Below are positions 2,249 to 57,950 of a stretch of DNA of 64,000 nt, piece after piece. Within the stretch, counting starts at the first letter, position 1. Every line of letters starts with the position of its first letter. Source of the DNA: a virus (Duplodnaviria; Caudoviricetes); IMG/VR virus record IMGVR_UViG_3300027874_000010, positions 1 through 64,000 of that record, one strand, 5' to 3'. A model generated the notes under the pieces. That model saw only the letters and a list, made by a program, of their open reading frames with translations, was not told the origin of the DNA and made no database searches. Position numbers and translations under genes: made by a program.

Positions 2249-3733
2249 CTAGGTGACGTTGCCCAGGCGGAAGGCGTCGATGTTCCACGGCGCGCCACCC
2301 ACGCGCTCCCACAAGATGATGCCGGTCTGGTCGGTGTCGGCAAACCGCTCGCGGAGGATGGTGATCGTAATCATGGCCCGCTCCGCGATGATGTAGCTGG
2401 AGAAGTCGCCGTACACGAGGCCGACATCACCCGTGGCCGCTGGATGGGTCACGAAATCGGACTTGTTGACGGGCTTGCCGAGGAGCGCTGGCTGCGGGCT
2501 ATCAAAGCCAGGTGCCCAAATGAAGGCACCCATGCCGTTGACCAACTGGCGGATGTCGTTCTCGGTGAGACGGTGGAGCAGCCACTGAGCGCCGTTCTGG
2601 TACTGGGACGGCAGCGCGTACTGCAGGTTCATCAGCTTGGGAGCCGACCCCATCGTCGCCGTGGTGTTGGAGATGGTGTGTGCCGTGGTGCCGGTCACGT
2701 CGAGCGCCGCGATGGGCGCGTTGACGATGCCCTGCGGCTGCATCGGTCCGCCATCGCCACGGATGAAGCCCTGGTCCTCGACCAACGCCATGTTGCGCGC
2801 GCCGTCCGTTGACAGGAACGTCAGCGGGTTGGTGATCGCGTCCGCCAGGAAGTCGTTGCTCAGCCGAGTCGCCACGCGGATCTTGCGGATCGGGATGTCG
2901 AAGAAGCCGAACGCAGGGTCCACGTCCTGAAACGCGGGAGTCTCACCAGCCCACGATCCCACGAAACCGCTGGTGAAGATCGAGCCGCCGTCAGCGCCCA
3001 GGGCACCCGACAGACCCGAGGTCGTGCCTGGCGCGGGCTGGATGCGCGGGAAGCGGAGCACGTCACGGGAGGTTTGACGCACCATCGCCATGCCGCGCAT
3101 GACCGCGTTCATGGGCAGGCGCGCGAGCACCTCGGCCTGCATGTCGGGCGGCACCAGATAGCCACCTGACTGGTCGATGCCTTCGGAGAGCGCCTTCTGC
3201 TCGGACGGCTCCAGCAGCGTGAACGCCATCGCCTCGTTCTTGGTGCGGATGGCGGTCGCGAACCACTTGTTGAAGACCTCTTTGTACTCGGGCTGCAGCG
3301 CCGCGCGAACCTGGCCGAAGTAGCGCTCCTCGTCCTCACCCTGGGGCGTGCCGAACAGCACGCGCTCGGGGTACATCGGGTGCGGACCGAGCGAGGTCGG
3401 CGCGTAGACCTGGCCGCTCTTGATCTCCCAACCCGCCTGGAGCATGGTTTGGCGACCGTCCGAGTCGGCGTTGATCGCGCCGCGCGGGGTCTTGTACTGC
3501 GGCGATTCGAGATAGGTGTGCAGATCTCGAACCTGATTGGCCTTCTTCTCAAGCTCATGCTCAAGATCGAGCCGTGGCTTGAGTTCCTCGGCCTTGGACA
3601 GCAGCGCTTCCAGCTTCATCTTCAACTCGGCTGGCATGTCCGACAGGTTGTCGCGCCAGCGCGGGTCGTCAATGATGAGTTGGGTCTGACGGTGGACCTC
3701 ACCCAACTCGGCGGCGAGTACCTTGACGCTCAT
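2249..3733 (-). CDS. HK97-family major capsid protein
   Basis: Coiled-coil delta domain, EQKALSEGIDQSGGYLVP, FIRGDG...PQGI, YGDFSSY, ERVGG. Confidence 0.95.
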   Translation of the reverse strand: MSVKVLAAELGEVHRQTQLIIDDPRWRDNLSDMPAELKMKLEALLSKAEELKPRLDLEHELEKKANQVRDLHTYLESPQYKTPRGAINADSDGRQTMLQAGWEIKSGQVYAPTSLGPHPMYPERVLFGTPQGEDEERYFGQVRAALQPEYKEVFNKWFATAIRTKNEAMAFTLLEPSEQKALSEGIDQSGGYLVPPDMQAEVLARLPMNAVMRGMAMVRQTSRDVLRFPRIQPAPGTTSGLSGALGADGGSIFTSGFVGSWAGETPAFQDVDPAFGFFDIPIRKIRVATRLSNDFLADAITNPLTFLSTDGARNMALVEDQGFIRGDGGPMQPQGIVNAPIAALDVTGTTAHTISNTTATMGSAPKLMNLQYALPSQYQNGAQWLLHRLTENDIRQLVNGMGAFIWAPGFDSPQPALLGKPVNKSDFVTHPAATGDVGLVYGDFSSYIIAERAMITITILRERFADTDQTGIILWERVGGAPWNIDAFRLGNVT

Positions 3734-3759: not shown

Positions 3760-5703
3760 TTAGGGTTCGACTGACTGGTACTTAGCCAGTGTCAGTTCCA
3801 TGTCCTTGAGCGCGGCGACGTAGCCGTTGGCTCCCGTGGGCTTGCCGTTCCGCCGCTTGCGGGTCTTGCCCTCGTTGTCTTCTCCCACGCCCTCGGCTGA
3901 AGCGTGGCGGTTCAAATGGGCGATGGCCTTGTCCTCCTGGGACTGGGGGTCGCCCTTCATCTGCGGGGCACGCGACAGGGCGTTGCGGAGGTGCGGCATG
4001 TCCAGCGAGCCGTCGCTCTTGTGGTGCGGGAGCTTGCGGACCTTCTGCCCGGCGTCGTTGGTGTAGACCATCGCGAACGCGGAGTCGGGCAGGTCGCTGA
4101 CGTAGCCGGAGTCCCACTCGGCCTTCTGCTCGAACATCTTGGTGTCGTGCTCGGGGTGGACGGCATCGTGGTGACCCACGAACTCGGTCATCGCCTGCGC
4201 CAGGAAGTCGATGGCCGACGCGCGGTCCTTCTCCTCCTTGCGCTGCGGGTCGTCACGGTCATCACCGTTGACATCCGAGACTTTGGAGTCGTCGTCGTCG
4301 TCGTCATCCCCGTTCTTGGGCTTCAACCACGGCGGCAGATCCTTCTTGGCCTTGCCGCTCGGCGGACGCTTGGTGCCTGGGATCGGGTTGCCGTCCTTAT
4401 CCCAGTGGTCGTGGTCGGTGTCACCCTCGGGCGTCGAGTCGTCGTCGCCGTCGTCGTCCGGATCCCACTTCTTGCGGGCCTTCTCGCCCGCGCCCAGGAG
4501 ATCCATCGCCATCAGCAAGTGGTTGATGCCACCGTGCAGGTTGTCGAGGCTGAGTTCGCCCGCGCTGGTCTTGCCGTCCCAGGCGATGGCCTGGGCGAAG
4601 CGCGCCCGCTCCAGCGCTCGACGGGCGGTGCCGCCGCGCGTCTTGCCGTCCGGGGTCATCGCCTCGTTGAGCGTGCTCTCGTCGCTCTCGGCCCAGGTCA
4701 GCAGTTCGTCCAGCGCCGCCTTGATGTTCTTGAGCTTGGCGCGCATGGTGCCCTTGAGCCGTACGCCGACCTTCTGGCCGTCGAAACCGAGCTTGGTACC
4801 CGTGCTCAGCGCGCGTGCCGCTTCGGACGAATCCAGGCTCAGATCGGCCAGCGTTGCACTGATCTCCGAAAGCGCAGACGTTGCGATTTTGGCCCCGTCA
4901 CCCATGACACCCTCGGCCTGGGCGTGCTGCCGAAGGTGGCCGAGGGCGAACTCGCGGAAGGGGGAGTCGGTGGCGCGATCCAGTTCGCGCTTGACCGCCT
5001 CGACGTTGACCGAGCCGTCTTCGTTGTGGTGGGGGAAGTGGCGCAGGGCGTGAGGGATGGTCTTGCCCTCCATCTGTTCGCCGCCGTCCTCGATGTAGGC
5101 GAACGCCTCGTCTGGAAGCCCCTGGATGAAGGCCGTGCTCCAGACTGGCGTCTCGCCGGTCGCGAAATGCTCGTGGTCCGACATGCCGGCTCCTTTCGTT
5201 CGGGTCTTCACCGCTGTGACGAGCGCCGGCGGCGAGGCGATGACTTGCTTCGCGGCGTACGAGTACTCCATCAGGTCCGCGTCGGTGAGCAGCCGGTACG
5301 TCTTGCCGTCCTTGGTCTGCCACTTCGAGTCGCGCGTCTGGAACCCGATGGACATTCCCAGTGGCTGGCCTGCCGCCTGCAACTCCCTAGCCGTCTGAAG
5401 GAGGTCGTCGCCTGCCTGGGTCTTGAAAATGCGCGTCTTGGTCCACAGGCCACGGTCGTCCGTGCGCATCTCGACCGGGATGCCGACAGGCAGCATCGAG
5501 GAGTTGTGGCCGACGAAGACGGCGATGTCGGATGGGGTCTTCTCGGAAAGCGTCTTGACGAACGCCTTCTTGTCGATCACGTCGCCGTTCAGATCGAGGT
5601 TTCCAAACGTGGCGGCGTAGCCCTCGATTGTCCGCTGCTCGGGATCGACCGCCTTGACCTCTAGGGAGGTCAGGAGTTTGGATTGATCGTCGCGGTCGGG
5701 CAA
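3760..5703 (-). CDS. HK97-type prohead protease with ~470-aa C-terminal extension
   Basis: IEGYAATFGNLDLNGDVI, VGH, GMSIGF, LMEYS; TTG start; duplicated LPDxAFA...LPHH domain. Confidence 0.9.
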   Translation of the reverse strand: MPDRDDQSKLLTSLEVKAVDPEQRTIEGYAATFGNLDLNGDVIDKKAFVKTLSEKTPSDIAVFVGHNSSMLPVGIPVEMRTDDRGLWTKTRIFKTQAGDDLLQTARELQAAGQPLGMSIGFQTRDSKWQTKDGKTYRLLTDADLMEYSYAAKQVIASPPALVTAVKTRTKGAGMSDHEHFATGETPVWSTAFIQGLPDEAFAYIEDGGEQMEGKTIPHALRHFPHHNEDGSVNVEAVKRELDRATDSPFREFALGHLRQHAQAEGVMGDGAKIATSALSEISATLADLSLDSSEAARALSTGTKLGFDGQKVGVRLKGTMRAKLKNIKAALDELLTWAESDESTLNEAMTPDGKTRGGTARRALERARFAQAIAWDGKTSAGELSLDNLHGGINHLLMAMDLLGAGEKARKKWDPDDDGDDDSTPEGDTDHDHWDKDGNPIPGTKRPPSGKAKKDLPPWLKPKNGDDDDDDDSKVSDVNGDDRDDPQRKEEKDRASAIDFLAQAMTEFVGHHDAVHPEHDTKMFEQKAEWDSGYVSDLPDSAFAMVYTNDAGQKVRKLPHHKSDGSLDMPHLRNALSRAPQMKGDPQSQEDKAIAHLNRHASAEGVGEDNEGKTRKRRNGKPTGANGYVAALKDMELTLAKYQSVEP

Positions 5704-7192: not shown

Positions 7193-7403
7193 TGTGGTTC
7201 GCGATCACCTTCGCCATCGTGCAGTCGGGATCCGGGTCGTAGTGCGGGATCAGCCCGTCGCGCCGAGCTTCATCTACCCAGGCTTGAGCGGTGCCTTCGA
7301 GGTACTTGGCGCGCGCGGCGTGCAGGACTTCATCCTTCTCGGCGTGGACGTGCCCGGCGTCCACGATGTAGCGCTCGCCGCCTAGCTCGACGCGGGCGCT
7401 CAT
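7134..7403 (-). CDS. hypothetical protein (candidate immunity/partner)
   Basis: MSARVELGGERY...; ATGA-coupled to 7400-9754. Confidence 0.6.
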   Translation of the reverse strand: MSARVELGGERYIVDAGHVHAEKDEVLHAARAKYLEGTAQAWVDEARRDGLIPHYDPDPDCTMAKVIANHIKGRYSCAPAPPAEPGQRH

Positions 7404-9754
7404 GTCATCTCCGACAGCGGCGTCGGGAAGATCTGGCGACCACCCTCGCGCGCCTCGGCCAGTAGCTGTTGGGTGAAGTCGAAGCTCTGCGGGTCGTCGC
7501 GGGCGAACTTCACCGGGTCGTCGTGCATGAGTTGCAGCGCCATCGACAGGAACTCGTGGCTGGTCGGCGCGTTGGGACCGTAGTCCTTGCCCATGTACGG
7601 GTCCGCGAACTGGTCGCGGTGCGTCACCTCGTTGTCGTTGTAGTTGCTGCCAGTCACCGAGCGTAACGACACGGTTGGCTCGCCCTGGGTGCGGCTCTCG
7701 ATGTGCGCCTGGATGCGCGGCCCCATGCCCGGGATGTTGTCTTCGAGCCAGTGGCCCATCTCGTGGACCACCGTGCTGTCGGAGTTGTCGCGCGGGTGCA
7801 TGGTGACCATGCCCGTGCCGCTGCTGTGGTAGCTGCGCCCGCTGTCGAACCACTGGTCGTCGGGTGCCATGAACTTGATGCGCGGCTGAAGGAATCCCTG
7901 GGTCACCTGGCCGGTCATCTCGTTGATGCGCTGCACGCCCTGGGTCCAGTTCTTGGGCACCTCGGTGGCTGAGATCGGCGTCAGGTCGCCGCGATAACCG
8001 GTTATCGCCAGGTTGCCTGGGCCGGTCGGGGAGTTGACGTACTTGGCCCGAAGCTCGGCCGTCAGGTTGTCGCGCGCGGCGTCCACCTCGTGCTTGGTCG
8101 CCCAAAAGTTGTTTTGGGTCACATCCATGTTGTGCATCTGGCGGTCGAGTTCGGTCTTGGCGTCTTCGTACTCCTTGCCGTACGTGACCTGATCGTCCTC
8201 TAGCTGCTTGATGACCTCGGGCGAGGCCCCGAGCCGCTTGGCGTCCTCGATGCTTTTCGGCAGCGACCCCACCATGTCGCGCATGTCGCTCCAGTTCTGC
8301 GCGGCGTGCTGGTAGTCCTCGCCCACCTGATCGTATTGCCGCTGCGCCTCGGTCATGCGTGCCTTGAGTGACGCCGTGCGTCGGTCGGCTTCCGCGATCA
8401 TCGCCTCGCGCCTCGCGCGCATCCGCTCGGGGCTGGTGTCGGCACGGACGCCGCCGGTCGGCCCGACCACGGGCTTCGCCGCGCCCTCCTTGGGCTTGCC
8501 CCAGGAACTGACGAACCCCGCGCCGCCCTCGTCGGTGAAGCGACCCGTGTCAGCGTCGTGGTACGGGTTGAACTTCTCCTCGACGGTCTTGGCCTGGTCG
8601 CCGGGCTTCCAGTCTTCGGGTGCGCCCTGCTCGGCCCACTCGATGATGTCCTGCCAGATCTCCCACGCCTGCTCCTCGGTCATGTCGTCCGGCGGCTCGT
8701 CGGTCATCTTCATCATCCGTGCGGCGATGGCCTCGGGCGAGCGGTTGGTGAGTGCGCCGCCCTCGCGCCGCCACTGCTCCCACACCACGGCCTGGAACGC
8801 CGCAGGGTTCATGTTGCGCGCCGACGCTGCGCTGCGCACGCGGTCCGCCGCCCATCCGTAGCCGCCGACTGTCGTCGCGCTCGGGCCGCGCCCGATCTTG
8901 CGGCCCTGGATCAGCGTGTTGACGGCCTTGAGGTTGGCTTCGGTGTCCTCGTGCAGGTTCAGCATGGCGCGCCCCATGTGCGTATCGACGGTCACGTCGA
9001 AGGCCGACTCGGGGTGGCTCAGGTTGTTGTTGAAGGATCGGATCTTGTTGGCGTTGAACACCTCGTCCGGGTCTTCGCCGCGCAGCGCTCGGATGGCGTT
9101 CTCGGCGTTGTTGCCGATGAACGGGTACGGCTTGGAGTGCGGCGTGATCTCGCGGATCTGCTCAGGCGTCATGCCCGGGTGCGCGCGGTCTACCTGCACC
9201 ATCGCGCGCGCAGCTTCGAGGTTGGGCAGTCGCCCGTTCTTGAGGTTCCAGTTGGTCAGCGGGCTGGTCGCCGCGACCGCATCCGTGAAGCGCTGGCGGT
9301 CCACCCCGAGTTGGTCGGCCCACTGGCCGATCTCGTTGTGCTTATCGACGTACCAGTTGGCGTCTTCGGCGTGGCCCTGCTCGATGGCTCGGTCGTACAG
9401 ATCGAGCATGCGCTGCTCCGCGAGCTTGGCGGGCAGATGCGGCGGATCAACAGCCCTGGCGCGGACACCCGTCAGGTGCGCCGTGTCCAGGCCGGTCCGC
9501 GAGGACTTCCACGTCGAGAGGTGGGTGACCGGCGTGCTGACGCCACCGCCGCCACCAGATACGAATCTGCCGCCCTCACCCCTGGGGTGGAGCGACTCAT
9601 CCCACTCTTTGAGTTCGTGCAGGAGCAGGGCGCGTTCCATGTCGAGCAACGCCGCGCGCACATCACGCGGAGCAACCACGACACGACCGTGGGCTACGTC
9701 GAGGCTGACCTCGATCTCACGGAGCTTGGCCTGAAGCGCGTCCCACTCAAGCAC
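7400..9754 (-). CDS. two-module cargo protein: DUF7178/HhH-like domain plus coiled coil and zincin metallopeptidase
   Basis: KEWDESLHPRGEGGRF and KFNPYHDADTGRF motifs; AATSPLTNW, VTVDTHM, QAVVWEQWR; HEMGHWLE...EFLSM. Confidence 0.75.
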   Translation of the reverse strand: MLEWDALQAKLREIEVSLDVAHGRVVVAPRDVRAALLDMERALLLHELKEWDESLHPRGEGGRFVSGGGGGVSTPVTHLSTWKSSRTGLDTAHLTGVRARAVDPPHLPAKLAEQRMLDLYDRAIEQGHAEDANWYVDKHNEIGQWADQLGVDRQRFTDAVAATSPLTNWNLKNGRLPNLEAARAMVQVDRAHPGMTPEQIREITPHSKPYPFIGNNAENAIRALRGEDPDEVFNANKIRSFNNNLSHPESAFDVTVDTHMGRAMLNLHEDTEANLKAVNTLIQGRKIGRGPSATTVGGYGWAADRVRSAASARNMNPAAFQAVVWEQWRREGGALTNRSPEAIAARMMKMTDEPPDDMTEEQAWEIWQDIIEWAEQGAPEDWKPGDQAKTVEEKFNPYHDADTGRFTDEGGAGFVSSWGKPKEGAAKPVVGPTGGVRADTSPERMRARREAMIAEADRRTASLKARMTEAQRQYDQVGEDYQHAAQNWSDMRDMVGSLPKSIEDAKRLGASPEVIKQLEDDQVTYGKEYEDAKTELDRQMHNMDVTQNNFWATKHEVDAARDNLTAELRAKYVNSPTGPGNLAITGYRGDLTPISATEVPKNWTQGVQRINEMTGQVTQGFLQPRIKFMAPDDQWFDSGRSYHSSGTGMVTMHPRDNSDSTVVHEMGHWLEDNIPGMGPRIQAHIESRTQGEPTVSLRSVTGSNYNDNEVTHRDQFADPYMGKDYGPNAPTSHEFLSMALQLMHDDPVKFARDDPQSFDFTQQLLAEAREGGRQIFPTPLSEMT
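7992..8007. repeat. 16-bp palindrome copy 2
   Basis: CGATAACCGGTTATCG inside CDS. Confidence 0.9.
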
Positions 9755-10037: not shown

Positions 10038-13000
10038 TTAGCCCGTGTACTGGCGGTCGGAGCGCTTCTGCGCGTTCTCCCATGCTGTCCTGTCGTGGAT
10101 GATGACCTGACCCTGCTTGGTGCGTTCCGCGATGAGCTTCGCGGCTCGCTGTGGCGAACCCTTGGGTGCCCAGGTGTTGTCCCAAATCTTCACGCTGTCG
10201 TAGCCGGCCTCGCCGTTCAGGATGCGCGGCAGCATCGAGTTGACGCTGGTGTGCGCCGCCTCGATGATCGCCTCGTCCACGGGACGGTCGGTACGCCCCT
10301 TCGCGGCAGCGATGGCCTGGGGGATCGGCACCGTCAGGTAGTTGGCGTTGACCTCCCTGGCTCCGTCGTCGCGGTAGCCCTGGATCTTGGTCTGCAGCTT
10401 GGTCATGGAGCTATTCATGACGGCATCCACGACGGCGTTGCGGCCGTTCTGCAACGCCGTCTTGACCACCTTGCCCGCGATGTCTGAGGACTCCTCGTGG
10501 ACCTTCATCGCCCACTTGACCGAGCCAGCATCGCGCATGGCCTGCGTCTCGGGGATGTCCTCGGTCTTGTTCCAGTCGGCGTTGCTCCACACCGCGTGGT
10601 CCTTATCGGGCACGGCGAACTGCTCGGGGCTGCGCTGCAGCGCCGTGCTCTTGCCCGACGCGCCGCCACCGCCCAGGACGCTGACGGTCGGTCCCCCCTC
10701 GGCGGGTGGCACGTAGCCGCCGCCAGCCACACCTTGTTCGTGGTTCTCGTAGATGCCGTGTTGGGCGCGGTCGATGGCCGGCTCGTGTACCTTGTCCAGG
10801 CGCGCCTGCACGTAGTCGCCCTTCTTGCCGCCCTCGGGCATGTACAGCTTCTGAGTGTCACCCTTGTCGCGCAGGAAGCCGTGCGGGTTGTCCTTGGTAA
10901 TCAGCGACGAGGAGTCGCCCGACTCGACGTTCTCGCCGCCGCCGACGCCAGCGGCGAAGCGCCCCGAGTTGTCGCGCGGGTGCTTGTCCTCGAAGTCCTG
11001 ATCCTTGGTTTCGGGCAGATCGAGGATGTTCAGCCAGGTCTGCGTCTTGGGGCGGAACACCTGTACCGGCTGGCCCGCACCGAGCAGCGAGCGCTCCATG
11101 TCGCGGATCTGCTCGGTGACGGCCTTGGTCAACTCGTCGCGGGAGTCCACGATGGTGTGCTCCCACCCGTTCAGGTTGAGCTTGCCGTTCTTGTCGCTCT
11201 CCTCGGACGGCGCGTGCCCAGGCCAGTAGCCGGTCGCCTCGTGGTGCAGCCACGCGCACAGCGCCTGGGGGTTGTCCACCTTGTCGGTGAGCGTGTCCAC
11301 ACAGTCATCGAAGTCGCCCGGGTGCCCGCCGTCGAAGCGGTCCTTCCAGTAGTCGAGCAGTGCCTCCAGATTGCCCGCCTTGTAGCTCAGCCGCTCGCCG
11401 TCGTCCGCGACCTTGGTCGGCCACTCGCCCGTGGCGTGCTTGTACAGCCACGCCGTCACTTCGAGGTGGTCGTCCAGGGCTTTCATCGCCGCATCGAAGT
11501 CGCCGCCGCCGGCCGCGAAGGTGTCGCGCCAGTGGTTGAGTAGTTCCACCACCTCGGCGGTCTTCTTCTTCTTGGGCGGCTGGCGCGGGCCACCTGGCGG
11601 GACCATGATGCCGCCGTAGGTGTCGATGCCCTCGGTCAGGATCTTGGTGGCATTCAGCGGGATGGCGACCTGGCGACCATCGGTGCCCGAGTAGGTCAGA
11701 TCCCCCAGGGTGATGTGCATGCCATACAGCGGCGACCTCTGGCCGACGTACTTCGAGACGGCCGAATGCTTGATGTAGGCGATGGTCACGTGCGGCGTGT
11801 AGTTGGTGTGCGTCTCGACGTTGGCGAGCGAGCGCTTGATGATGCCGTTGAGATGGCCCGCGTCGTCGCTGGTGACGCTCACGTACAGCGGCACGCCGCC
11901 GCCCTGGTCCTGGCCGGCGAAGACGTAGTTCGGCCCAAACGTCATGGCGACCGGCGTCTGGTCCTTGACCACGCGCGCCACGTCGCTCGCGCCGACGTTG
12001 GGCATCAGCCCGTACTTGACGGTGACGTGCGGCTCCATCTCGATGCCGCCGCTGCCCAGGTCGTCGGGGTCGATGTGGTCCTCAGCCCACTCGACCAGTT
12101 CGTTGCCCAGGATCTCTGGCAGGTTGAGTTGCGTCGAGGAGTAGTCGTAGCCGCTGGTCGCGTCGGTCTTGAGCATGTACGGGTCTTGGCCGCACCAGGC
12201 GCACACGCCGAGTTCCACCGAGCGGTAGTGGCCCATGTCGTCTTCGGGGCAGTCGGGGATGATCTCGAACCGCCCGTCGCTGGTCATCTTCGTCTCGATC
12301 ATCTTCCCTCCTGGGCCGGCTGAGCCTGACTCCTGTGCGCCACCCGGTGGCGGTACGCCAGGGATGGATGGTGGTGCGCCGCCGCCGCCAGGTCGTCCGC
12401 CGAACGCGCCGCCGCCACCTGGCGGCAGGCCGGGCGGCTGGTCAGGCTGTCCTGGCGGCTTGTCCCCCTTGTGGTAGTTCGCCAGTTCGTCGGAGGGCGT
12501 CGGGATCATGTTGGCTGGCAGCAGCACCCACCCTGGCTGGTCGGTCGGGTAGCCGAGCGTCTGCGCCGCGACGTGCCACGGGATCAGGCCCGCCGTGAAG
12601 TCGGCACGCACGCGGGCGTGCACCTTGTCCACGTCCTCGGTGTAGCCCGGCACCTGGCTGAGGTCGAAGTCGAAGTGGTCAACCTCGGGGAAGTCGGGCT
12701 TGATCTGCAGCGAGAACTGCTGCGCCAGATCCTCGTACATCGGAGCCAGCGAGCCAGTCCACCACTGCGCTCGGTCCGACTCCTTGTTCGAGTTGTTCAG
12801 GCCCGACGAGGACTGGTGGCCGAGGACCGTCCAGATGATCGACGGCGGCACGTCCAGTACCGCGCAGATCTTGGACTCGGTGACGCGGTTGATGTCGTCC
12901 AGGCCCAGGCCCACCGGGTCCATGCCCATCTTGGTGTAGGTCGCCTGCCCGTTGTCGATGACCAAGACGTTGCCCCACCCGTCTGGCCCGCCGTACTGCT

Positions 13001-13727
13001 GGCGGAAGCGCTGGCGGATGATCTCGCGCTCGTTGGGTTCGACCGAGCGCATGATGTTGAGCAACCCGCTCGGCACGCCCGCGTTCCTGAAGAACGCCGT
13101 GGTGAACTCGCGGCACCACACGTCGATGTCGATGCGCTCGGCCAGCACCGCCAGCGGCGACAGGCCGTAGTAGTCGTTCAGCGGGTTGGGGTTCTTGAAG
13201 TGGATGACATCATCCGGATCCAGGGTGAACACCCGCTCCCCGATGCGGTACTCGTACGCCTGGATGTAGTCCTTTTCGTCAGGGATGATCCACACGCGGT
13301 CGGGTCGCAGCGGCCAGTACTCGATGATCTTGCCCGAGCGCCCTCGCACGATCTCCCAGTAGGCGTTGCCGTTGATCTTGAGCGCCACCACCGTGGACGA
13401 CCACAGCATGAACGTCGTCCACCACTTGTTGGGGCGGTTCAGGACATCCAGCGCGGGGTGGTCGAAGATGGCGTCGGCGTCGTGCGCCTTGGAATCGAAG
13501 ACCACCATGCGCGGCAGCGCCGCTGACTTCGCGACGGCCTGGCACGCGGCGAAGACGACCTCGGACCCCAGGTAGCCCTTGCGCGCCAACTGGTCGTACG
13601 AACGTTGGTTCCAGATCGGCGTGGCCGGCAGGCCAACCTGCCAGGTCGGGATGGCCGTCGCCACAGCCTGCTTCGTCTCGCCCCCGAACAGAGCGAGCGT
13701 GCGGAAGGCGTCGGCCAGCAGGCCCAT
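10038..13727 (-). CDS. HK97-family portal fused to 2H phosphoesterase (Acb1-like) and zeta-toxin-like P-loop kinase
   Basis: Portal motifs (GNAYW, LRPDRV, VIHFKNPNP, YGLSPL, FFRNAGVPSG); PHVTVKYG/PHVTIAY; GGGGASGKS, VHEESS, AVVD. Confidence 0.9.
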   Translation of the reverse strand: MGLLADAFRTLALFGGETKQAVATAIPTWQVGLPATPIWNQRSYDQLARKGYLGSEVVFAACQAVAKSAALPRMVVFDSKAHDADAIFDHPALDVLNRPNKWWTTFMLWSSTVVALKINGNAYWEIVRGRSGKIIEYWPLRPDRVWIIPDEKDYIQAYEYRIGERVFTLDPDDVIHFKNPNPLNDYYGLSPLAVLAERIDIDVWCREFTTAFFRNAGVPSGLLNIMRSVEPNEREIIRQRFRQQYGGPDGWGNVLVIDNGQATYTKMGMDPVGLGLDDINRVTESKICAVLDVPPSIIWTVLGHQSSSGLNNSNKESDRAQWWTGSLAPMYEDLAQQFSLQIKPDFPEVDHFDFDLSQVPGYTEDVDKVHARVRADFTAGLIPWHVAAQTLGYPTDQPGWVLLPANMIPTPSDELANYHKGDKPPGQPDQPPGLPPGGGGAFGGRPGGGGAPPSIPGVPPPGGAQESGSAGPGGKMIETKMTSDGRFEIIPDCPEDDMGHYRSVELGVCAWCGQDPYMLKTDATSGYDYSSTQLNLPEILGNELVEWAEDHIDPDDLGSGGIEMEPHVTVKYGLMPNVGASDVARVVKDQTPVAMTFGPNYVFAGQDQGGGVPLYVSVTSDDAGHLNGIIKRSLANVETHTNYTPHVTIAYIKHSAVSKYVGQRSPLYGMHITLGDLTYSGTDGRQVAIPLNATKILTEGIDTYGGIMVPPGGPRQPPKKKKTAEVVELLNHWRDTFAAGGGDFDAAMKALDDHLEVTAWLYKHATGEWPTKVADDGERLSYKAGNLEALLDYWKDRFDGGHPGDFDDCVDTLTDKVDNPQALCAWLHHEATGYWPGHAPSEESDKNGKLNLNGWEHTIVDSRDELTKAVTEQIRDMERSLLGAGQPVQVFRPKTQTWLNILDLPETKDQDFEDKHPRDNSGRFAAGVGGGENVESGDSSSLITKDNPHGFLRDKGDTQKLYMPEGGKKGDYVQARLDKVHEPAIDRAQHGIYENHEQGVAGGGYVPPAEGGPTVSVLGGGGASGKSTALQRSPEQFAVPDKDHAVWSNADWNKTEDIPETQAMRDAGSVKWAMKVHEESSDIAGKVVKTALQNGRNAVVDAVMNSSMTKLQTKIQGYRDDGAREVNANYLTVPIPQAIAAAKGRTDRPVDEAIIEAAHTSVNSMLPRILNGEAGYDSVKIWDNTWAPKGSPQRAAKLIAERTKQGQVIIHDRTAWENAQKRSDRQYTG

Positions 13728-16789: not shown

Positions 16790-17150
16790 ATACATGCAGC
16801 GGCGCTACCGAGCGCGCATGGCGACAGCTATCGAACGGCTCGGTGGCCGGTGCATCCAGTGCGGCTCGACCGAGAGCCTGGAGTTCGACCACATCGACCC
16901 GTCCACGAAACTCATGGACATCTCCCAGGCCGTCACCTACTCGACCCGCGTGTTCGAGGCGGAACTGGCGAAGTGCCAACTGCTGTGCGCCTCGCACCAT
17001 CAGCAGAAGACGCTCCAGCAGAACGGCATGACCCTGGCCCGAGGCACCCACGGCACGCTCTCCGCGCTCCGCTACTGTCGCCCGCCATGTGACGCCTGCC
17101 GAGCGGCCAAGGCCGACTACAACCGGCAGCACTACCTCTCGCGCCGTTAG
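16764..17150 (+). CDS. HNH endonuclease
   Basis: CIQCGSTESLEFDHIDP...CQLLCASHHQQKT; C-terminal HGT...C..C; stop lies inside tRNA-Lys. Confidence 0.85.
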   Translation: MSSNAYMREYMQRRYRARMATAIERLGGRCIQCGSTESLEFDHIDPSTKLMDISQAVTYSTRVFEAELAKCQLLCASHHQQKTLQQNGMTLARGTHGTLSALRYCRPPCDACRAAKADYNRQHYLSRR

Positions 17151-17214
17151 CTCAACTGGCTAGAGCAAGAAGCCCTTAACTTCGAGGTTCTCGGTTCGAG
17201 TCCGAGACGGCGCA
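17141..17214 (+). tRNA. tRNA-Lys(CTT)
   Basis: GCGCCGT/ACGGCGC acceptor; GCTC/GAGC D arm; loop CC-CTT-AA; CTCGG-TTCGAGT-CCGAG. Confidence 0.9.
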
Positions 17215-17311
17215 CTGCCCCCGGCGTTGACCCCGCTGGCGCGTAAACGTTCGCTCATCAGCGACGACCCGCCTTGTCACGTCGGGGCTTTTCCATATCG
17301 TGGAGCGGCCA

Positions 17312-20880: not shown

Positions 20881-21264
20881 ATGTCCACCACCAAGACGCC
20901 GTTCGTGCCGAGCTTCATCCCTGAGCCGGACGGCCTGCCAATCTGGAAGATGCGCGAGATCGAGCGGTCACGCCAGCACTTCATCGAGGGCGGCGCGTAC
21001 GTCGGCCCCGAGGGTGAGGTGCGCTGGTTCTCCAACGACAGCGTGGTCCCGGGCGACGTGTTCCGTGATGCCTACGTGCGGGTGCCCAACCCCGAGGCTC
21101 AGGAGCGGGTGCGCGACCGTGAGACGCAGGCGTTCCTGGCCGAGTACCGCCGGGCCAACAAGGGCCGCAAGCGGTCGGCTGAGGAGATATTTGAGATGCG
21201 CGCGGCCTTCGGCCCGGGCGAGACGGTTGTCGATGTGATAACCGGTGAGCGGTTCGAGACGTGA
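20881..21264 (+). CDS. hypothetical
   Basis: Strong SD; ends VVDVITGERFET. Confidence 0.7.
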   Translation: MSTTKTPFVPSFIPEPDGLPIWKMREIERSRQHFIEGGAYVGPEGEVRWFSNDSVVPGDVFRDAYVRVPNPEAQERVRDRETQAFLAEYRRANKGRKRSAEEIFEMRAAFGPGETVVDVITGERFET

Positions 21265-22133
21265 GTACGACCTACTCACCCTCCCTGTGCACGGCGGCGC
21301 GGGATCTCCCTGTTCGCCTGTCCGAGTGGTGGATGGAACCCAAGATGGACGGCATCCGTCTGCAGATGGTCGCCAGAGGTGGCCGCGTAGACTGCTACTC
21401 GCGGGCGGGGCTGACCTACAACGGTCGTATGCCCGCCGTCGAGGAGGCCCTGTCCGCCCTGGACGTGGTAGTCGATGGCGAGGTCGTCTGGTTCTCACCC
21501 GAAACGGGTGAGGTGGACTTCCACAAAGGCTCGGGCCTGTTCCGTCGCGAAGACTCGGCGCGGGCGCAGCGCTTCGAGGGGCCGCTGACCTACGTGGTCT
21601 TCGACATGCTCGAACTGGCCGGCCAGGATCTGCGCAAGCTGCCCATCGAGACACGGCGCGGCCTGCTGGCGCAGTTGGTCGAGGGCCTCGGGTGCCCGCA
21701 GCTTCGCCTGATCGAACAGGCCGAAGCGTCACCCGAGGCACAAGCAGCCTACATCGCGCGCTACCGCGAAGGGGTGGTCCTCAAGAAGAAGGGCAGCACC
21801 TACGTCGCGGGCCGGCCTCCGACCTGGCTCAAGCTGAAGGTGGTCGAGGATGCCGATGTGGTCATCACCGGCTTCGAGCGCGGCAAGGGCAAGTACGCCA
21901 ACACCCTGGGGTGCGTCGAGTTCAGCCAGTTCCGCGAGGGCCTGTTGGAGCGGCGCGGGACGTGCTCGGGCATGACCGACGCCGAGCGCGATCACATCTG
22001 GCACAACCGCTCCGAGTACGAGGGCAAGGTGCTGGTCATCCGTCACATGGGAGCCGATGGCGAGGGCTTCCGGCACCCACAGTGGAGCCACGTTCGAGAA
22101 GACAAAAACGCCTGGGAGTGCGTCTGGTCATGA
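21261..22133 (+). CDS. lig: ATP-dependent DNA ligase
   Basis: EPKMDGIR (KxDG), VVDGE, YVVFD, EGVVLK, WLKLK, C-terminal OB fold. Confidence 0.9.
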   Translation: MSTTYSPSLCTAARDLPVRLSEWWMEPKMDGIRLQMVARGGRVDCYSRAGLTYNGRMPAVEEALSALDVVVDGEVVWFSPETGEVDFHKGSGLFRREDSARAQRFEGPLTYVVFDMLELAGQDLRKLPIETRRGLLAQLVEGLGCPQLRLIEQAEASPEAQAAYIARYREGVVLKKKGSTYVAGRPPTWLKLKVVEDADVVITGFERGKGKYANTLGCVEFSQFREGLLERRGTCSGMTDAERDHIWHNRSEYEGKVLVIRHMGADGEGFRHPQWSHVREDKNAWECVWS

Positions 22134-25177: not shown

Positions 25178-25498
25178 TCAACTTTCGATGCTCAAGACGA
25201 GGCCGCGACCGTCGTTAGGGAAGCTCTCCTGATGCCCGGGCCACGCCACCAGCCAGTGGTAGAAGTACGCGCCAGGAACGTCCGTCTCGCCAGGTAGCCA
25301 GATGTGCTGCACCAGCCCCTGGGTCGCATCGGCACCCGCGATGGTCGCGGGCAGGATCGTCTCGATGCTGGTCGCCATCTCAAAGAGCTTGAGCGAGACG
25401 GTGGCGTCGGTGAGATCCACGGCACTGAGATCCGGGTTGAGCAGCGTGCCCGTGATTGTCGGCAGCGTGTCGGAGAGCTTGAGATAGAAGTCGGCCAT
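25178..25498 (-). CDS. BppU-like (baseplate upper/Ig-like) protein
   Basis: FYLKLSDTLP...VDLTDATV...GLVQHIW..GETDVPG.Y...ESFPNDG. Confidence 0.65.
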   Translation of the reverse strand: MADFYLKLSDTLPTITGTLLNPDLSAVDLTDATVSLKLFEMATSIETILPATIAGADATQGLVQHIWLPGETDVPGAYFYHWLVAWPGHQESFPNDGRGLVLSIES

Positions 25499-28400
25499 CA
25501 GCTTGGCTCCTCGCCTCGATTCGGGTTGCCCCACGTCACCTTGCCAGATGCACCCGCGCTGGTCCTAGAGCCGTAGGGCGAGCCACTGGTTGCCCTGCGC
25601 CGTCCGCCCGCCGAGGTGCGCCCGTTGCTGCCGCCCACTGAGGTCCGCGACGGACCGGTGTGGATGATCTGACCGTCACCGGTCGTGCCCTCGAAGCGGT
25701 TGATGTGCAGGGTCGCATCCAGCGTGGCCTGCCCAACGGATGACCCGAACAGCATCTTGAAGATGGCGATCTCGCATTCGAGGGCGACCGAGGTGAGCAC
25801 GCCCGATGGCGGCAGGTAGACCAGCAGCCCGGCCGCGAAGCTCGACTGCGCGACGGTGACCACCGTCAGGCCGATACGCAGCGGACTCAGGCTCGAAGAC
25901 GCCTGGGCGACCAGCGGCGGCGGCTGGATGTACTGATAACGGGTTATCGCTGCCGTGCTGCCCGAGGCCGTCAGCACCGTCGCCTGGACGAAGACCGTCA
26001 GCCCCGCTTGAGTGCCGCCCTGAGCCGCGCCCGAGGCCCCCAGGCCGATGGCGAGCACCGCGTCGAGGGTGACGTGGGTGGTGACGATGCCCGCGAACTC
26101 GGTGCCCGCCTGGACGAACGTCACACCCGAGGTCTGCGCCTGGGCGATGGTGACGACACTCAGGCCGAAGTTGACCGGCGGCGCGCTCAGGCTGGCCTGG
26201 GCGATGACCGTGCCCGAGAGCACCGCGCGCTGGCCGGTCTGCGCGCTCGACGCGGCCTGGGCGACGGACTGGCCCGCCAGCAGCAGGACGAAGGGGACGT
26301 TCTGGACCAGCGCCTGACCCTGGACGCTGCCCGCAACCAGCGTGTTGAGCAGTGCGTCGAACTGCGACTGGGCGCGGATCGGGAGTGGCACCAGCGTGGC
26401 ACCGAAGGCGCACGCTGAGATCGCCTGCGAGACAACCTGGCCGCTGAGCGCCACGCGCACCGTCAGCGCCGTGACGCTCGTGCTCGCCTGCGGCAGGACG
26501 CTGCCAGCCATGAAGTAGGTGATGAACGGGTTGGGGACGAAGACCGTCGCCTGGGCCGCGCTCGCGCCGACGAGTGGGGAGGCAGGCACCAGCGAGCACG
26601 AGGTGCTGGCCTGGGCGACGGTCAGCCCGGCGAGGCCGTACGTAGCGGGCAGTTGTCCCGTGGCCTGGGCCTGGGCGACCACAGATCCCTGCAGCGCCAG
26701 GGCGACCTGGGCCGTGGCCGTGGCCTGGGCGACCACGACGGCCGAGCCGATCAGCGGCGAGTAGATCGCGGAGAGTGTGGCCTGCGTCGTGATCTGGCCG
26801 GTCAGAAGCTCGGTGGCCGGGCCGAAGACCAGCGCCTGGGCCGTGACGGTGCCCGCCAGCCCGATGGTGAGCGTGCCGGTGCCCGTCGAGAGCGCAACGG
26901 ACTGGCTCGCCAGGAGCACCGTGGGTGCACCAAGCACTTCATCCAGCGCCGCCTGGGTGACGATGGCGACCGGTGCCAGGACCAGTTTGAGCGCCGCCGT
27001 GGTGTTGGTCGTGGTGAGGACCGCACCCGCCATCTGGACGCCGGTGCCGAAGGCTCCCGTCGAGATGGCCTGGGCGACGACGGCCTGCGAGCCGAGGGCG
27101 ACCTTGAGGCCAGGGATTGGCCCGACTTCATCCAGTGCCGCCTGGGTCGCGATGGTGCCCGCCAGGGCGTTGGCTTGGCTCAGCGCCGCAGTGCTTACTG
27201 CCTGGGTCGCGGCATTGCCAGCCAGCCCCAGGACCAGCGTGTTGGTACTCAGCACCTGGGTGACCGTCGCGCCCTGGAGCTTCGCCGTCAGCGTGGCTGT
27301 GGACTGCGCCTGGGTGACCGTCGCACCCGTAACCAGCATGCCGATGATGAGTTGCGCCGAGGTGCTCGACGCCTGTGCGGTGGTGACCTGGGGCGGGAAG
27401 GCGACGGTGATGATCGCGCTGGTCGATGCCTGCGCTGTGCCGATGCCGGTCAGGTTCGACATCGCACCGACGAAGACGGCCTGGGCGACGATGGTCTGGT
27501 TGCCGAGCGACAGCTTCAGCCCTGGGGTTGCGCCGATCTCATCCAGCGCAGCCTGGGTGGTGACCGTGCCCGTCAGGATGTTGACCTGGCTGAGCGCGCC
27601 AGCCAGCGTGACCTGGGTGACCGTCGCCGCTGGCAGGAAGACGGTTGGCGCGCTCGTACTGAGCGCCTGGGTCGCCGTCAGCCCCTGCAGCTTGAGGGTC
27701 GGCGCGGCTCCGATCTCGTCCAGTGCGGCCTGCCCGAAGAAGCTCGCCTGGAGCGCCTGGACCTGAACCATCACCGCGCTGGTGCTGGCCTGGGTGACGG
27801 TCGGTCCTGCCAGCAAGATCCTGGGCGCGCCGGTCGCGACGGCCTGGGTGACGATGCCCGGGGTACTCAGCCACTCGGTGAGCGGACCGCTGACGATGGC
27901 CTGGGCGATGACCGATCCCTGAACCAGCAGCGTCGGCGCAGCCAGGATCTCGTCCAGGCCGGCCTGGGTCGCGATGGTGCCCGCCAGCGCCTGCTTCGCC
28001 GTGAGCGTGCCGCTCAGCGTTGCCTGGCCGATGGAGTTGCCGCCGAACGCTGGCGCGACCTCGCGCGGCGCGCCCAGGACGATGCGCCCGAGCAGCGTCA
28101 TCGGCGTGCCCAGGACCGCCGTGTCGCGCAGCGCGATGCCGAGGCGCGTCGGCACACGAAGGTTGGCCGAGGTAACTGCCTGGGTCGCCACGACCTGGGT
28201 GCCGAGCGCGAAGCGCGGGCTGGCGGTGCTGACGGCCTGGGCGACGGGCGAGGCCGTCAGCATCTCCCACATCGGACCGATGACCGTGGCTTGCGCGACA
28301 GAGGTGCCCGCCAAACCAGCGGTCAGCGTAGTGAGCACCGGTGCGCCCTGGCTGACCGTCGCGCCCGCCAGTGCGAAGGCTTGGCTCAAGGTTGCGGACG

Positions 28401-31400
28401 AGACGGCCTGGGTCGCCGTCACCACCGCCGGTAGTGCCTGGGTGAAGGTGACGCTGCCGCTAGAGACGGCCTGGGTCGCGATGACCTGGGCACCGAGCGA
28501 GATTCGCAGCGTGGCCGTGCTGATCGCCTGGGCGACGAACGCGCCCATCATGCTGCCGCCGCCTGCGGCGTAGTGCAGTGCGACCTGGGTGGGCGACAGC
28601 GCCACGTTGTAGTAGGCGAACTGGGCGAGCTTCCCGGTGAAGTTGCCGCCACCGCCGCCGTTGCGCCAACCGAAGTTGTTGGTGATGTTCGTCAGCAGCG
28701 CGTAGCCGCTCAGGTCAATCGTGCCGACCTGGGCACCGTTGACGTAGGCGATGCCCGTGTTGACATCGCGCACGACCACGATGTGGTTCCACTGGTTCTG
28801 CTTGATGACACCCGTCGTGGACTGGATGGCGTGGTTGCCGCCGCTGCTATCGACGTAGTTGGCGTACAGCGCGGTTGGCGTGTCGTACTGCCAGACGTGG
28901 AAACCCTGGGTGGCGGTGCCGTTGCTGTAGTCGATAATCGGCTCGGTGTTGGCCGTTGTCGGGTAGATCCACATTTCCCAGGTGAACGGGTTGCTAATCA
29001 GATCCAGCAGTGAGAACGGCGCGGCGCTGTCCAGCGTGGCGTTGGTCGTGCCATCGAGCGAATAGGCGTAGCTCGGAACGTCAGTTGACAGACCGGGCTG
29101 CATGACGTTGACGCCTGTCGGATTGGCCCGCATGGTCAGGCCGTGACCGCTCTCATCGAAGGCGTTGGCATCGCCCGCCTCGTGCATCCGCCAGTAGCCT
29201 TGAAGCCCCGTCGTAGCCTCGATGGACGAGCCGAGCGAGTCGCGTGCCTTGATGCCCTTGTAGTAGTGGTCCTGAGCGACGGCCAGGGTCATGACGTTGG
29301 TGTAGATCGCCATCTCGTCAACGTTGCCCGCAAGGAGCGCGTTCGTGTACGAGTTCTTGCCGACGTAGGTGTTCCCGTATGCGTCAGCAAAGTTGTAGAA
29401 CGTCCCCTTGCTGCCCGCCTGGGCCTCGATAGCCCCATTGACCATGACCGTCAGCGTGCCGCCACCGGAGGGCGACCAACTCGCCACGATGTGGTGCCAC
29501 TGGCCGGTGGACAGCGGTCGCCAGGTCGTGATGTTCTGCCAGGTGCCGTTGCCGCTCGTGTCGATAAACCAGTTCAGCGTGCCATTTGTGGCCGCGACCT
29601 CCAGCGAGAAGCCGCCCTTGTTGGTGTTGTCGTAGTAGCGGCGCTGAAAGATGGGCGCGCCAACAGTCCACGACGTGGCCCTTAGCCACGTCTCGATGGT
29701 GAAGCCGGTTGTGGTCCAGGGCGTCGAGTAGTCGCTCGAATAGATGTAGTTGACCGAGCCGTCGAGCGTTGCCGACTTGCCAATGCCATCGCTCAGCGCT
29801 GATGTGCCGCGCGGCTGCAGCGCACCCTGGAGGGCGAGGTTGGCGTTGAGCGCGGAGTCCCAACACGTCGTGCCGGCCGCCTCATCGAAGCGCCAGTAGT
29901 ACTTGAGCGAGCCACCGAAGTTACTCAGGATCGTCGTGCTGTACTCGTTGTTCGCTATTGCCGAGGAGGTCGAAGCCTGAGCCTTCGCGATGCCACTCGA
30001 TCCTGTCCACGTGATCGGGAGCCAGGTGTTGAGCGAGCTATAGAGGGCTTTGCCCGGCGAGGTGACGGCCTGGTAACAGCCCTCGACAATGTTCACCAGC
30101 AGGGCGGTGACCGCGAACGGATCGGCAACGGCGGTTCCGAGGGGGGTCCACTGGGCATTCAGCGGACCCCACGCCTGGAAGATGGTGTACCCGGTGTCGT
30201 AGTACGAGAAGTAGACCTTGCCAGCAGATTCGGTGATGCGCAGCCACAGGTTGTGGAGGCTCGTATTCGCGACCGTGCCGAGGGTGGTGAGCGTGCCCGC
30301 CACATTGGTGCGCGCAACCACATTCAGATCGACCATCCCGATTTCGAGGTAGTTGTTGCTGTCGATCTGAAGCTGAATCGTGGCGGTCTGGCCGGCCTTC
30401 CACGTTGAGGACAGTTGCAGGTAGACGAACATGGATTTGTTCGTCAGGTCGTAGCTAGATTTTGAAAGCACCCCGCCATAGGTGCTTGCTCCTGGCCCGG
30501 CGTTGTTGACAGCCAGCGTGTAGGGGAAGGCCCACGGGTAGCCGGAGTAGCCAGAGTCGTTCTCGATTGCGGCTCCCGTGCCCCAGAAGCCCCACAACGT
30601 CGTATTCAGCGCTGGAGCGTTGAAGTAGTCGCTGATGGGGATGGTTGCCCCCATCGCAACCTGCCCCGAGCCGATCAGGAAGTGGTTGGTAATCTGTGAT
30701 TTGGTGAGCGCGGTGTTGTACCAGGCAACTTCGTCAACACCGCCGCCGCCACCGATTGAGTAGTTGGTCGTTGGTGATGTCGGATAGCTGTTGCCAAGGA
30801 CGAGGTTGGCCCCACCACTGGATCCGGGTCCGGCGAAGCTACCGCCAGTGACAGGGGACGAGCCTTGCAGAATAGAGTCGATGTAGATGGCAGCATTGGC
30901 TCCGTCGTACGTCAGGGCAACGTGGTGCCACACGTCCTTCGTGACGGTGTAGTTGACGCCACCGACCCAAACGCTGCCGCCGGTGCCATAGAACAAGCAA
31001 TCGAGTTGCGTGCTGTTGCCTGGGCCGAAGTAGTAGCCAGCACTGCCATTGGTGGTGTCAAAAAACTGGCCGTACGCAACTGTTTGCGTTGAGGACCACT
31101 TGAACCAGCACTCCATCGTGAACGGATTGGTGCCACCAGTGCCGACATCGACACTGGTGCCAGAGATCCTGTCGGTGGTCTGCTGTGTGGTCCATGTCGC
31201 GCCGATGTTGCCCAGTAACGAGCTTGTCGCAGCGCCCTGGACGAGCGAGCCGCTGCTCGTCGCCATCAGGTCGTCGGTGCCTTTGTAGTCGTAGACCCGG
31301 CCGCTGCTCTCGTCCAACCGCCAGTAGTGCCTGAGCGACGACTCGGCGGCGATCATCGTGCCGTACGGATCGGTGGGAGCCGGTGGAGTTGGCCGGATGA

Positions 31401-32990: not shown

Positions 32991-33386
32991 GACCGGCTGC
33001 GGCGGCGGCGCGGGTGCCTGGACCTGGCTCTCGTCCACCACTGGTCCCGCCGGCGACATGGGTGTGACGACGGTGCCCTGGTCCAGGCCAAGCGCCGAGA
33101 CGACTGCGGCTTGCTGCTCGGGTGTGCCGTAGGCGTACGCCGTCGCAATGTCAATGGTCGGCACCGGCGTGGTCGCCAAGTTGAAGCTCCGCACGTAGGT
33201 GTCGAGGATCTCGTTGTTGCGGTCCTGCAGCCACTTGGCAGGGTCGTTGCCCTCGCCCGCGACCCACAGCAGCGCCTGGTTCTGCACGTCGGTCGCCTCG
33301 ATGGTGTACGTGCCTGCGGCCAGCGGCGGGATGTACGGCGGCGGGGCGACGATGGTCGTACCAGGGGTCGGTGGTTGGTCAGTCAT
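32988..33386 (-). CDS. hypothetical (tail fibre-associated)
   Basis: ATGA-coupled to tail fibre gene. Confidence 0.6.
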   Translation of the reverse strand: MTDQPPTPGTTIVAPPPYIPPLAAGTYTIEATDVQNQALLWVAGEGNDPAKWLQDRNNEILDTYVRSFNLATTPVPTIDIATAYAYGTPEQQAAVVSALGLDQGTVVTPMSPAGPVVDESQVQAPAPPPQPV

Positions 33387-42976: not shown

Positions 42977-43158
42977 GCGGGATCTCCGTCCTCGAACTGG
43001 ATGCCGTGGTCGCCCGGGTACGTCTGGCGATGCTCGATCTTGGACTGCCAGATCTCGTCGGGGATGCCGTGCGTAAACGCCTCGCAGCGCATGAACGCCT
43101 TGGGTGGCGGCGCTTCGAGGTGGATGCAGTGCAGGCAGATGGCTGGTGGGAACTTCAC
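42958..43158 (-). CDS. small CxxCxH...CxAFxxGIP protein (candidate immunity)
   Basis: CLHCIH...CEAFTHGIPDEI...H...PGDHGIQFE; ATGA-coupled to giant gene. Confidence 0.75.
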   Translation of the reverse strand: MKFPPAICLHCIHLEAPPPKAFMRCEAFTHGIPDEIWQSKIEHRQTYPGDHGIQFEDGDPAWTAPS

Positions 43159-57875: not shown

Positions 57876-57950
57876 GCACGAGGAGCCAGGCCGGTTGCCA
57901 GGCGCACGTCTGCAAAACGTGATTCGCGGGTTCGACTCCCGCCTCGTGCT
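57876..57950 (+). tRNA. tRNA-Cys(GCA)
   Basis: GCACGAG/CTCGTGC acceptor; CACGT-CTGCAAA-ACGTG; GCGGG-TTCGACT-CCCGC; U discriminator. Confidence 0.85.

Follow-up and report, generated by a model that had tools for sequence, protein, structure and literature searches.

Positions 11646-12167 of the window analysed here, the first 64 kb of the 74.4-kb linear IMG/VR virus record IMGVR_UViG_3300027874_000010 (about 67% complete, G+C content of about 65%), encode on the minus strand residues T521 to T694 of a 1229-aa open reading frame (ORF; 10038-13727, -) that begins as an HK97-type phage portal protein. An earlier note on this DNA had placed there an Acb1-like 2H phosphoesterase bracketed by lysine sites, a pre-formed enzyme that would be injected against host nucleotide-signalling immunity. 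The feature belongs to the minus strand; the plus-strand reading of these positions was discarded, as it contains no HxT motif. The ORF encodes in order an HK97-type portal, a Pro/Gly linker, a Cys/His knuckle, the 2H domain, two helical repeats, a PRD..GRF tag and a zeta/AvrRxo1-like kinase. Since four other metagenomic proteins share the whole arrangement (63-75% identity; five proteins with the present one), the fusion is real and not a frameshift artefact. The neighbouring genes encode a terminase, a DUF7178 protein, an S78 prohead protease and an HK97-fold capsid protein.

The portal domain (aa 1-415; 12483-13727, -) matches PF04860 over aa 57-359 (E = 8.8e-55), TIGR01537 (115 bits for a cut-off of 112) and the portal families phrog_2662 and phrog_12. 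It is followed by what reads in the sequence as a flexible Pro/Gly-rich linker (aa 416-477; 12297-12482, -), the length and sequence of which vary with indels among the five homologues. Next comes a small Cys/His knuckle (C493, H500, C509 and C512; 12168-12296, -) that leads to L519-K520 and is invariant in the five full-length homologues. Its sequence, DCPED..GHYRS..GVCAWCG, was found in the close family only, and the fragment P0020 also has this segment. The knuckle possibly binds zinc, judging from its residues, and is modelled by AlphaFold2 with low confidence. The 2H domain itself covers aa 521-695 (11643-12167, -).

The two HxT motifs reported for this segment are indeed present, EPHVTVKYG at aa 565-573 (12009-12035) and TPHVTIAY at aa 644-651 (11775-11798), and so are the proposed lysine boundaries, MLK/TD at aa 518-522 and ATK/IL at aa 693-697 (here and below, a slash after a lysine marks a known or proposed boundary or cleavage point). 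A 2H phosphoesterase does lie inside the portal ORF: PF13563 scores 29.9 bits with the whole protein, 33.6 bits with the domain alone and 34.1 bits in the genome scan, for a cut-off of 27. An exhaustive phmmer search of 1.84 billion cluster representatives yielded 3474 matches at E <= 1e-3. Since these matches span aa 523-695 (query residues ~33-205), nearly the same stretch as the ~175-aa segment between the two lysines, the proposed brackets correspond to the true domain limits. In an alignment with 22 short relatives (23 members), the invariant columns are E563, H567, T569, G573, H646, T648 and Y651. Hence, both catalytic motifs, HVTV (H567, T569) and HVTI (H646, T648), are intact and invariant across the 23 aligned members. 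The AlphaFold2 model of the domain has a mean predicted local distance difference test score (pLDDT) of 84.8, with 93-98 in the core. Its matches by Foldseek and VIA-align were all 2H enzymes, and the VIA Z score was at least 10 for more than 40 2H entries. By its motifs and its predicted fold, the segment is a catalytically intact 2H phosphoesterase.

T4 Acb1 (gp57B) is a 2H phosphoesterase that degrades the cyclic oligonucleotides of CBASS (an antiphage signalling system based on cyclic oligonucleotides). The present domain shares several properties with the Acb1 proteins of T4, of Erwinia phage FBB1 (7T26/7T27) and of Burkholderia phage BCSR5 (9Q2G/9Q2Y): the 2H fold, the HxT/HxT tetrad, in which each Thr is followed three residues later by a Tyr, the Y-x-P-H-[IV]-T signature and an aromatic residue (F603) that aligns with T4 W74. 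It differs from them by its size (~175 aa versus ~150 aa), by the apparent lack of a Trp-bearing C-terminal lid and by being embedded in a structural protein, whereas Acb1 is a free protein made during infection. Acb1 cleaves 3'3'-cGAMP and cAAA by way of a cyclic-phosphate intermediate. The second HxT motif aligns with H113/T115 of T4 Acb1, the catalytic tetrad of which is H44, T46, H113 and T115, and also with the FBB1 and BCSR5 chains. T4 Acb1 has four base-stacking aromatic residues, Y12, W74, F107 and W147, and a C-terminal lid carrying a Trp (PMC9117128). W74 aligns with the near-invariant F603 and F107 with the conserved H640, which are plausible equivalents; Y12 and W147 could not be aligned.

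Of the 23 family members, 23/23 match PF13563, whereas 18/23 touch the Acb1 model PF23474 at E <= 0.01 (best E = 5.6e-7) and 15/23 touch LigT_PEase. When the family profile was compared with the sequences in the PDB, the top match was the BCSR5 protein deposited as 'Anti-CBASS protein Acb1' (E = 4.3e-7), followed by drCPDase (2e-3), FBB1 Acb1 (4e-3) and then YjcG. A single-sequence search of the PDB with the 2H domain retrieved only AKAP7-like chains, without significance. Concerning structure, the highest VIA Z scores for RNA cyclic phosphodiesterases were 15.4 for drCPDase (160 residues), 15.3 for Thermus thermophilus LigT and 14.8 for Escherichia coli LigT. Proteins of the ThpR/LigT type (E. 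coli ThpR, 5LDI/5LDM; drCPDase from Deinococcus, 5H7E; T. thermophilus, 1IUH) are thus close in fold (Z 14.5-15.4 over 150-160 residues) and similar in size. They differ by their motifs, HxTLxF/HxTLxR in E. coli ThpR versus HxTxxY here, and no RNA-ligase partner was found for the present domain in the record. The corresponding curated models stay below their cut-offs (TIGR02258, 12.9 bits versus 65.7; PF02834, LigT_PEase, 11.6 bits versus 23.3), and hhalign gives a probability of 59.7% for E. coli ThpR.

Membership of the Acb1 family was rejected, as the domain comes out intermediate between Acb1 and ThpR by Foldseek, by VIA-align, by hhalign and by Pfam scores alike. Of the Acb1-like enzyme proposed in the earlier note, the 2H fold and the HxT/HxT tetrad stand and the family assignment, with PF23474 below its cut-off, does not. 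For the alternative raised there, an RNA 2',3'-cyclic phosphodiesterase, ThpR/LigT proteins rank first by structure but the domain stays below the cut-offs of their curated models. The domain does not cluster with tRNA-repair 2H enzymes only, since Acb1 structures match over their whole length (135/137 residues, Z 12.3). Because no method separates Acb1 from RNA cyclic phosphodiesterases here, we treat the domain as a 2H enzyme that forms a separate clade. According to its sequence and its structural model, it is about equally distant from Acb1 and from ThpR/LigT and belongs to neither named family. An action against type III CRISPR, also proposed in the earlier note, finds no precedent in Acb1 since Acb1 cannot cleave cA4 (PMC9117128).

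Iyer et al. described in 2017 2H domains fused to MuF or portal proteins, confined to phage-type polyvalent proteins and never accompanied by RNA ligases, and proposed, by analogy with fusions of PBECR RNases to MuF and portal proteins, that they are RNases or degraders of defence nucleotides (PMC5512222). The locus presented here is a further case of this class, with a portal, a 2H domain and a zeta kinase in one polypeptide encoded between the terminase and the protease and capsid genes. Hence, the core of the idea put forward in the earlier note was already published as a prediction, and for portal fusions of this kind a pre-formed enzyme carried by the virion is what one would expect (PMC5512222). 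The 2H domain belongs to the same clade, its nearest relatives (35-46% identity) being found in multidomain proteins of 1000-6000 aa or in portal and MuF fusions, and the head-gene context, the predicted delivery and the predicted function are also alike. The 150 best relatives include 94 proteins of more than 1000 aa and, among these, 68 of more than 2000 aa. The architectures sampled include MuF + ART + 2H + NUDIX, DUF7178 + 2H, 2H + DarB-like helicase, histidine phosphatase + 2H, 2H + topoisomerase IB and portal + 2H, the latter on two unrelated portal families: PF04860 (P0021, P0154, P0048 and P0015) and PF06381 (P0016 and P0055). P0055, a metagenomic protein of 1167 aa with a PF06381 (Phage_portal_3) portal, carries 2H and then Zeta_toxin, in the same order as the present portal. 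Therefore, the 2H-kinase pair has moved between portal scaffolds or has arisen twice. Compared with the class as described, the present lineage adds the zeta-like kinase, the two repeats, the Cys/His knuckle and, where the domain ends, a copy of the capsid junction. The releasing enzyme may also differ, as the earlier description invokes autoprocessing by a metallopeptidase (PMC5512222) whereas the junction copy points to the prohead protease.

This copy is a new detail of the present locus. The major capsid protein (494 aa; 2249-3733, -; PF05065 over aa 190-492, E = 1.4e-48) begins with a scaffold (delta-like) domain of ~180 aa. Between this scaffold and the N-arm of the mature protein lies a junction at 3146-3196 (-) that reads K180/ALSEGIDQSGGYLVPP. 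In the portal fusion, K695/ILTEGIDTYGGIMVPP (11595-11645, -) directly follows the last strand of the 2H domain. The two stretches are identical at 11 of 17 positions (capsid aa 180-196), with a BLASTP E value of 0.004 for the pair. Their ungapped BLOSUM62 score is 58; shuffled sequences gave maxima of 18.5 +/- 4.2 on average and none of 20,000 shuffles reached 58. Among the six-frame ORFs of the window, only those of the capsid and of the portal fusion contain the motif. The K695 copy is kept in all five portal fusions (5/5) though the surrounding linker varies, and the capsid copy is kept in five capsid relatives with 47-92% identity. The viral-contig and metagenome loci with portal homologues end before the capsid gene would be reached, and the loci with capsid genes do not contain the portal tail. 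The motif was also considered as a general feature of the 2H end and discarded as such, being absent from the other ~160 proteins examined that bear a 2H domain.

HK97 gp5 is cleaved after K103, its junction reading FNK103/S104LGSDADSAGSLIQP. The 103-residue scaffold domain thus removed is lost at maturation (PMC10275583). In the register of the Pfam capsid model, K180 falls within one residue of HK97 K103/S104. The C-terminal lysine site proposed in the earlier note is consequently strengthened, as K695 precedes a 17-aa copy of a capsid maturation junction that is itself at most one residue away from the HK97 site. Since the residues that follow it copy this junction, K695 is a probable prohead-protease site, which the S78 protease would recognize and cut just as it does the capsid protein. 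For the predicted cuts, the candidate is the prohead serine protease of 647 aa encoded at 3760-5703 (-; PF04586, E = 4.1e-16), the S78 domain of which covers aa 13-149. Downstream of this domain, the protease has a long acidic/basic tail with two repeats (..LPHH..DGS.....L+.AL.. ...HL..HA.AEG).

The N-terminal lysine site fares less well. L519-K520 is invariant in the close family only, and is followed by variable residues with an indel. K520 was also rejected as a general boundary of the 2H clade, since among 135 embedded distant relatives Lys and Arg together never exceed 35 in any upstream column. K520 as a cleavage site is therefore a guess. A further Lys-preceded element, the tag K908/DQDFEDKHPRDNSGRF (10956-11003, -), is located before the kinase; its residues P917, R918, G922 and R923 are invariant in the homologues. 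Six Lys-preceded copies of the pattern K/x[FY]D..QPRD..GRW occur in the 2892-aa ORF at 43155-51833 (-), for which no Pfam match was obtained at E <= 0.001, and one in the portal tail at K908. This PRD tag looks like a cargo or cleavage signal shared by the two proteins.

Between the junction copy and the tag lie a basic linker and two helical repeats of ~50 aa (aa 712-908; 11004-11594, -). They match phrog_6439, a family of unknown function, over aa 783-843 (E = 7.6e-12) and no Pfam family. The repeats follow the pattern ..W+D+F..GDFD.....AWL.+.ATG.WP.. and end with AWLY/HxxATGxWP. The zeta-toxin/AvrRxo1-like P-loop kinase (aa 1000-1229; 10041-10730, -) has a Walker A motif, GGGGASGKST, at aa 1019-1028 (10644-10673). 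It scores 40.8-45.2 bits with PF06414 (Zeta_toxin) for a cut-off of 22.3, and 21 bits, below threshold, with AAA_33. Its AlphaFold2 model (pLDDT 71) gives VIA Z scores of 15.1 for AvrRxo1 (211 residues), 14.0 for zeta, 13.3 for PezT and 13.0 for the Clostridium thermocellum polynucleotide kinase (Pnk), and its neighbours in the atlas are Zeta_toxin/AAA_33 clusters. No homologue of the kinase domain that stands alone (134-429 aa) was retrieved by a word-index search. A second and weaker element resembling the capsid N-arm, GGGYVPP, lies at aa 1002-1008 (10704-10724, -) just before the kinase P-loop; most homologues have GG.[LMIV][VI]P.

Directly downstream of the portal, a 784-aa DUF7178 protein is encoded at 7400-9754 (-). 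DUF7178 is fused to the same 2H clade in P0024, and the protein may be another head-cargo carrier, similar to MuF. Three tRNA genes were found on the plus strand, tRNA-Lys(CTT) at 17141-17215, tRNA-Cys(GCA) at 57876-57952 and tRNA-Asn(GTT) at 61987-62060. A protein of 2305 aa (25498-32415, -) contains three Laminin_G_3 (concanavalin-like) domains and another of 1030 aa (33383-36475, -) ends with a Peptidase_S74 intramolecular chaperone; both probably serve as tail fibres or in host recognition. The sole ligase-like gene, at 21261-22133 (+), encodes an ATP-dependent DNA ligase (PF01068, 87 bits); as the RNA_ligase family PF09414 is also just above its cut-off, it might be mistaken for an RNA ligase. 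No phage of the INPHARED collection was near-identical or similar by megablast, and tblastn with the 2H domain matched distant free-standing 2H genes only.

The explanation that we favour, with a probability of roughly 0.4, is that the portal carries a virion-packaged 2H enzyme that would be released by a protease and destroy an immune nucleotide signal of the host. The 2H module would belong to a polyvalent cargo tail at the C-terminus of the portal. As the C-terminus of HK97-type portals faces the capsid interior, about twelve copies would be present inside the head of each virion. During head maturation, the S78 prohead protease would most likely cut after K695, with possible further cuts after K520 and K908. 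Once free, the 2H domain and the kinase would leave with the DNA at infection, before phage gene expression. Inside the new host, the HxT/HxT site would catalyse a metal-independent transesterification or hydrolysis of a phosphodiester, the substrate that we prefer being a host immune nucleotide signal such as a cyclic di- or trinucleotide of the CBASS type or a related messenger with 2'-5'/3'-5' linkages. The enzyme would thus work in an Acb1-like way without belonging to the Acb1 family. The immune signal is preferred as target because of the published context, the pull of the sequence towards phage Acb1 and the lack of RNA-repair partners. Moreover, an ejection protein of a virion has been reported to block CBASS (bioRxiv 10.1101/2025.07.23.666291), so that injected anti-CBASS factors are not far-fetched.

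Several observations weigh against this explanation. PF23474 (Acb1) reaches only 12.9 bits with the domain (E = 0.09) and 9 bits in the genome scan, for a cut-off of 27. The alignment with T4 Acb1 obtained by hhalign has a probability of 78.7% over 52 columns only. Structures of the ThpR/LigT type and of Usb1 (Z 14-15.4) outrank those of Acb1 (12.3 and 11.9), Acb1 being smaller. In the sequence, no aromatic residue is found at aa 681-695, the place of the Trp-bearing lid of Acb1. The P-loop kinase present in the same polypeptide, and again in P0055, recalls RNA end-healing modules that combine a kinase with a cyclic phosphodiesterase. Lastly, neither RtcB nor T4-type Rnl1 nor KptA/Tpt1 (PTS_2-RNA) is encoded by the 74-kb record, but its completeness of ~67% makes this absence of RNA-repair partners weak evidence.

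The main rival is RNA end healing, which we consider possible but doubtful. The 2H domain would then open 2',3'-cyclic phosphate ends produced by the host's anticodon nucleases or by other RNases that need no metal, and the kinase would phosphorylate the 5'-OH, so that tRNA or mRNA would be readied for a ligase in a Trl1-like way. Trl1, the fungal and plant tRNA ligase (PMC5029449), indeed combines a P-loop kinase and a 2H domain in one polypeptide; in the present protein, however, their order is reversed, there is no ligase domain and the kinase falls in the zeta/AvrRxo1 branch, not in the polynucleotide-kinase branch. The best structural neighbours of the 2H domain are RNA 2',3'-cyclic phosphodiesterases (drCPDase, Z 15.4), although the ThpR model TIGR02258 remains far below its cut-off (12.9 bits versus 65.7). 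Likewise, the kinase resembles the C. thermocellum polynucleotide kinase (Z 13.0, 22% identity) and has AAA_33 as secondary Pfam match, but Zeta_toxin scores 45 bits versus 21 for AAA_33, and the structures that match it best and over the greatest length are those of two small-molecule kinases, AvrRxo1 and zeta. The recurrence of 2H and kinase in the same order on another portal family in P0055 would fit a common pathway; yet only 6 of the ~160 proteins of the 2H clade that were examined carry the kinase, and domains that co-occur in polyvalent proteins need not share one pathway. The tRNA-Lys, tRNA-Cys and tRNA-Asn genes of the phage are consistent with pressure from tRNA-targeting defences. 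Nevertheless, its 74 kb contain no RNA ligase (RtcB, T4 Rnl1) or 2'-phosphotransferase, and this 2H clade never occurs with RNA ligases according to Iyer et al. (PMC5512222).

Two other explanations concern the substrate and the delivery. The domain could be an injected RNase, acting as a Usb1-like exo- or endoribonuclease on host RNA, or a 2',5'-phosphodiesterase like ns2, VP3 and AKAP7. Both options were named for this clade by Iyer et al. (PMC5512222), and the domain matches Usb1 (Z 14.0-14.4) as well as ns2 of mouse hepatitis virus and VP3 of rotavirus (Z 10-11.4); furthermore, the insignificant AKAP7-like chains mentioned above are its sole single-sequence matches in the PDB. However, such likeness of fold is common to the whole superfamily, identity to Usb1 is 7-12% and no family-specific motif was found in the domain. 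We consider this explanation quite improbable. It is also unlikely, though slightly less so, that the tail is not injected at all but stays on the portal or acts late in the producing cell, on late defence signals or on packaging or assembly substrates, with the motif serving for docking. In line with this, portal protein is made late and in quantity, the motif also lies within the N-arm of the mature capsid protein and could be a binding element, and the N-terminal lysine site finds no support beyond the close family. On the other hand, long flexible Pro/Gly and basic linkers separate the modules, K180 of the capsid lies within one residue of the HK97 K103/S104 register, a further Lys-preceded tag is common to the portal tail and to the 2892-aa multi-enzyme protein, and packaged and ejected polyvalent effectors have precedent (PMC5512222).

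Delivery of a virion-packaged 2H enzyme would resemble that of the T4 internal proteins and Alt, the Dar proteins of P1 and the ejection proteins of SPN3US and phiKZ, which are described (PMC5512222; PMC10052503) as effectors loaded into the prohead, trimmed there at a consensus site by the prohead protease and ejected with the DNA. Here, in contrast, the cargo is covalently part of the portal, and what nearly copies the capsid junction is the putative site itself, where an HK97-like cut after Lys would occur. A bolder extension, which we regard as rather unlikely, is that the portal would be a loading dock for pre-made counter-defence enzymes. The capsid-junction copy and the PRD..GRF tag would together form a release code that guides the prohead protease and frees twelve copies each of the signal-degrading 2H enzyme and of the zeta-like kinase, so that an Acb1-like activity would arrive with the DNA before CBASS-type signalling builds up.

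The class of portal-fused 2H domains and its predicted role were published in 2017, and the domain itself is thus unsurprising. What the locus adds is a testable handle on the release of portal cargo, namely the copy of the capsid junction exactly at the domain boundary. It also offers, in one phage, a compact system for cleavage rules, made of the protease, the capsid protein, the portal tail and the tagged 2892-aa multi-enzyme protein. The anti-CBASS nucleases known so far, Acb1 among them, are free proteins synthesized once infection has begun. If the explanation favoured here is true, a ready-made 2H enzyme delivered by the virion would act before phage transcription and would represent another timing strategy against nucleotide-signalling immunity.

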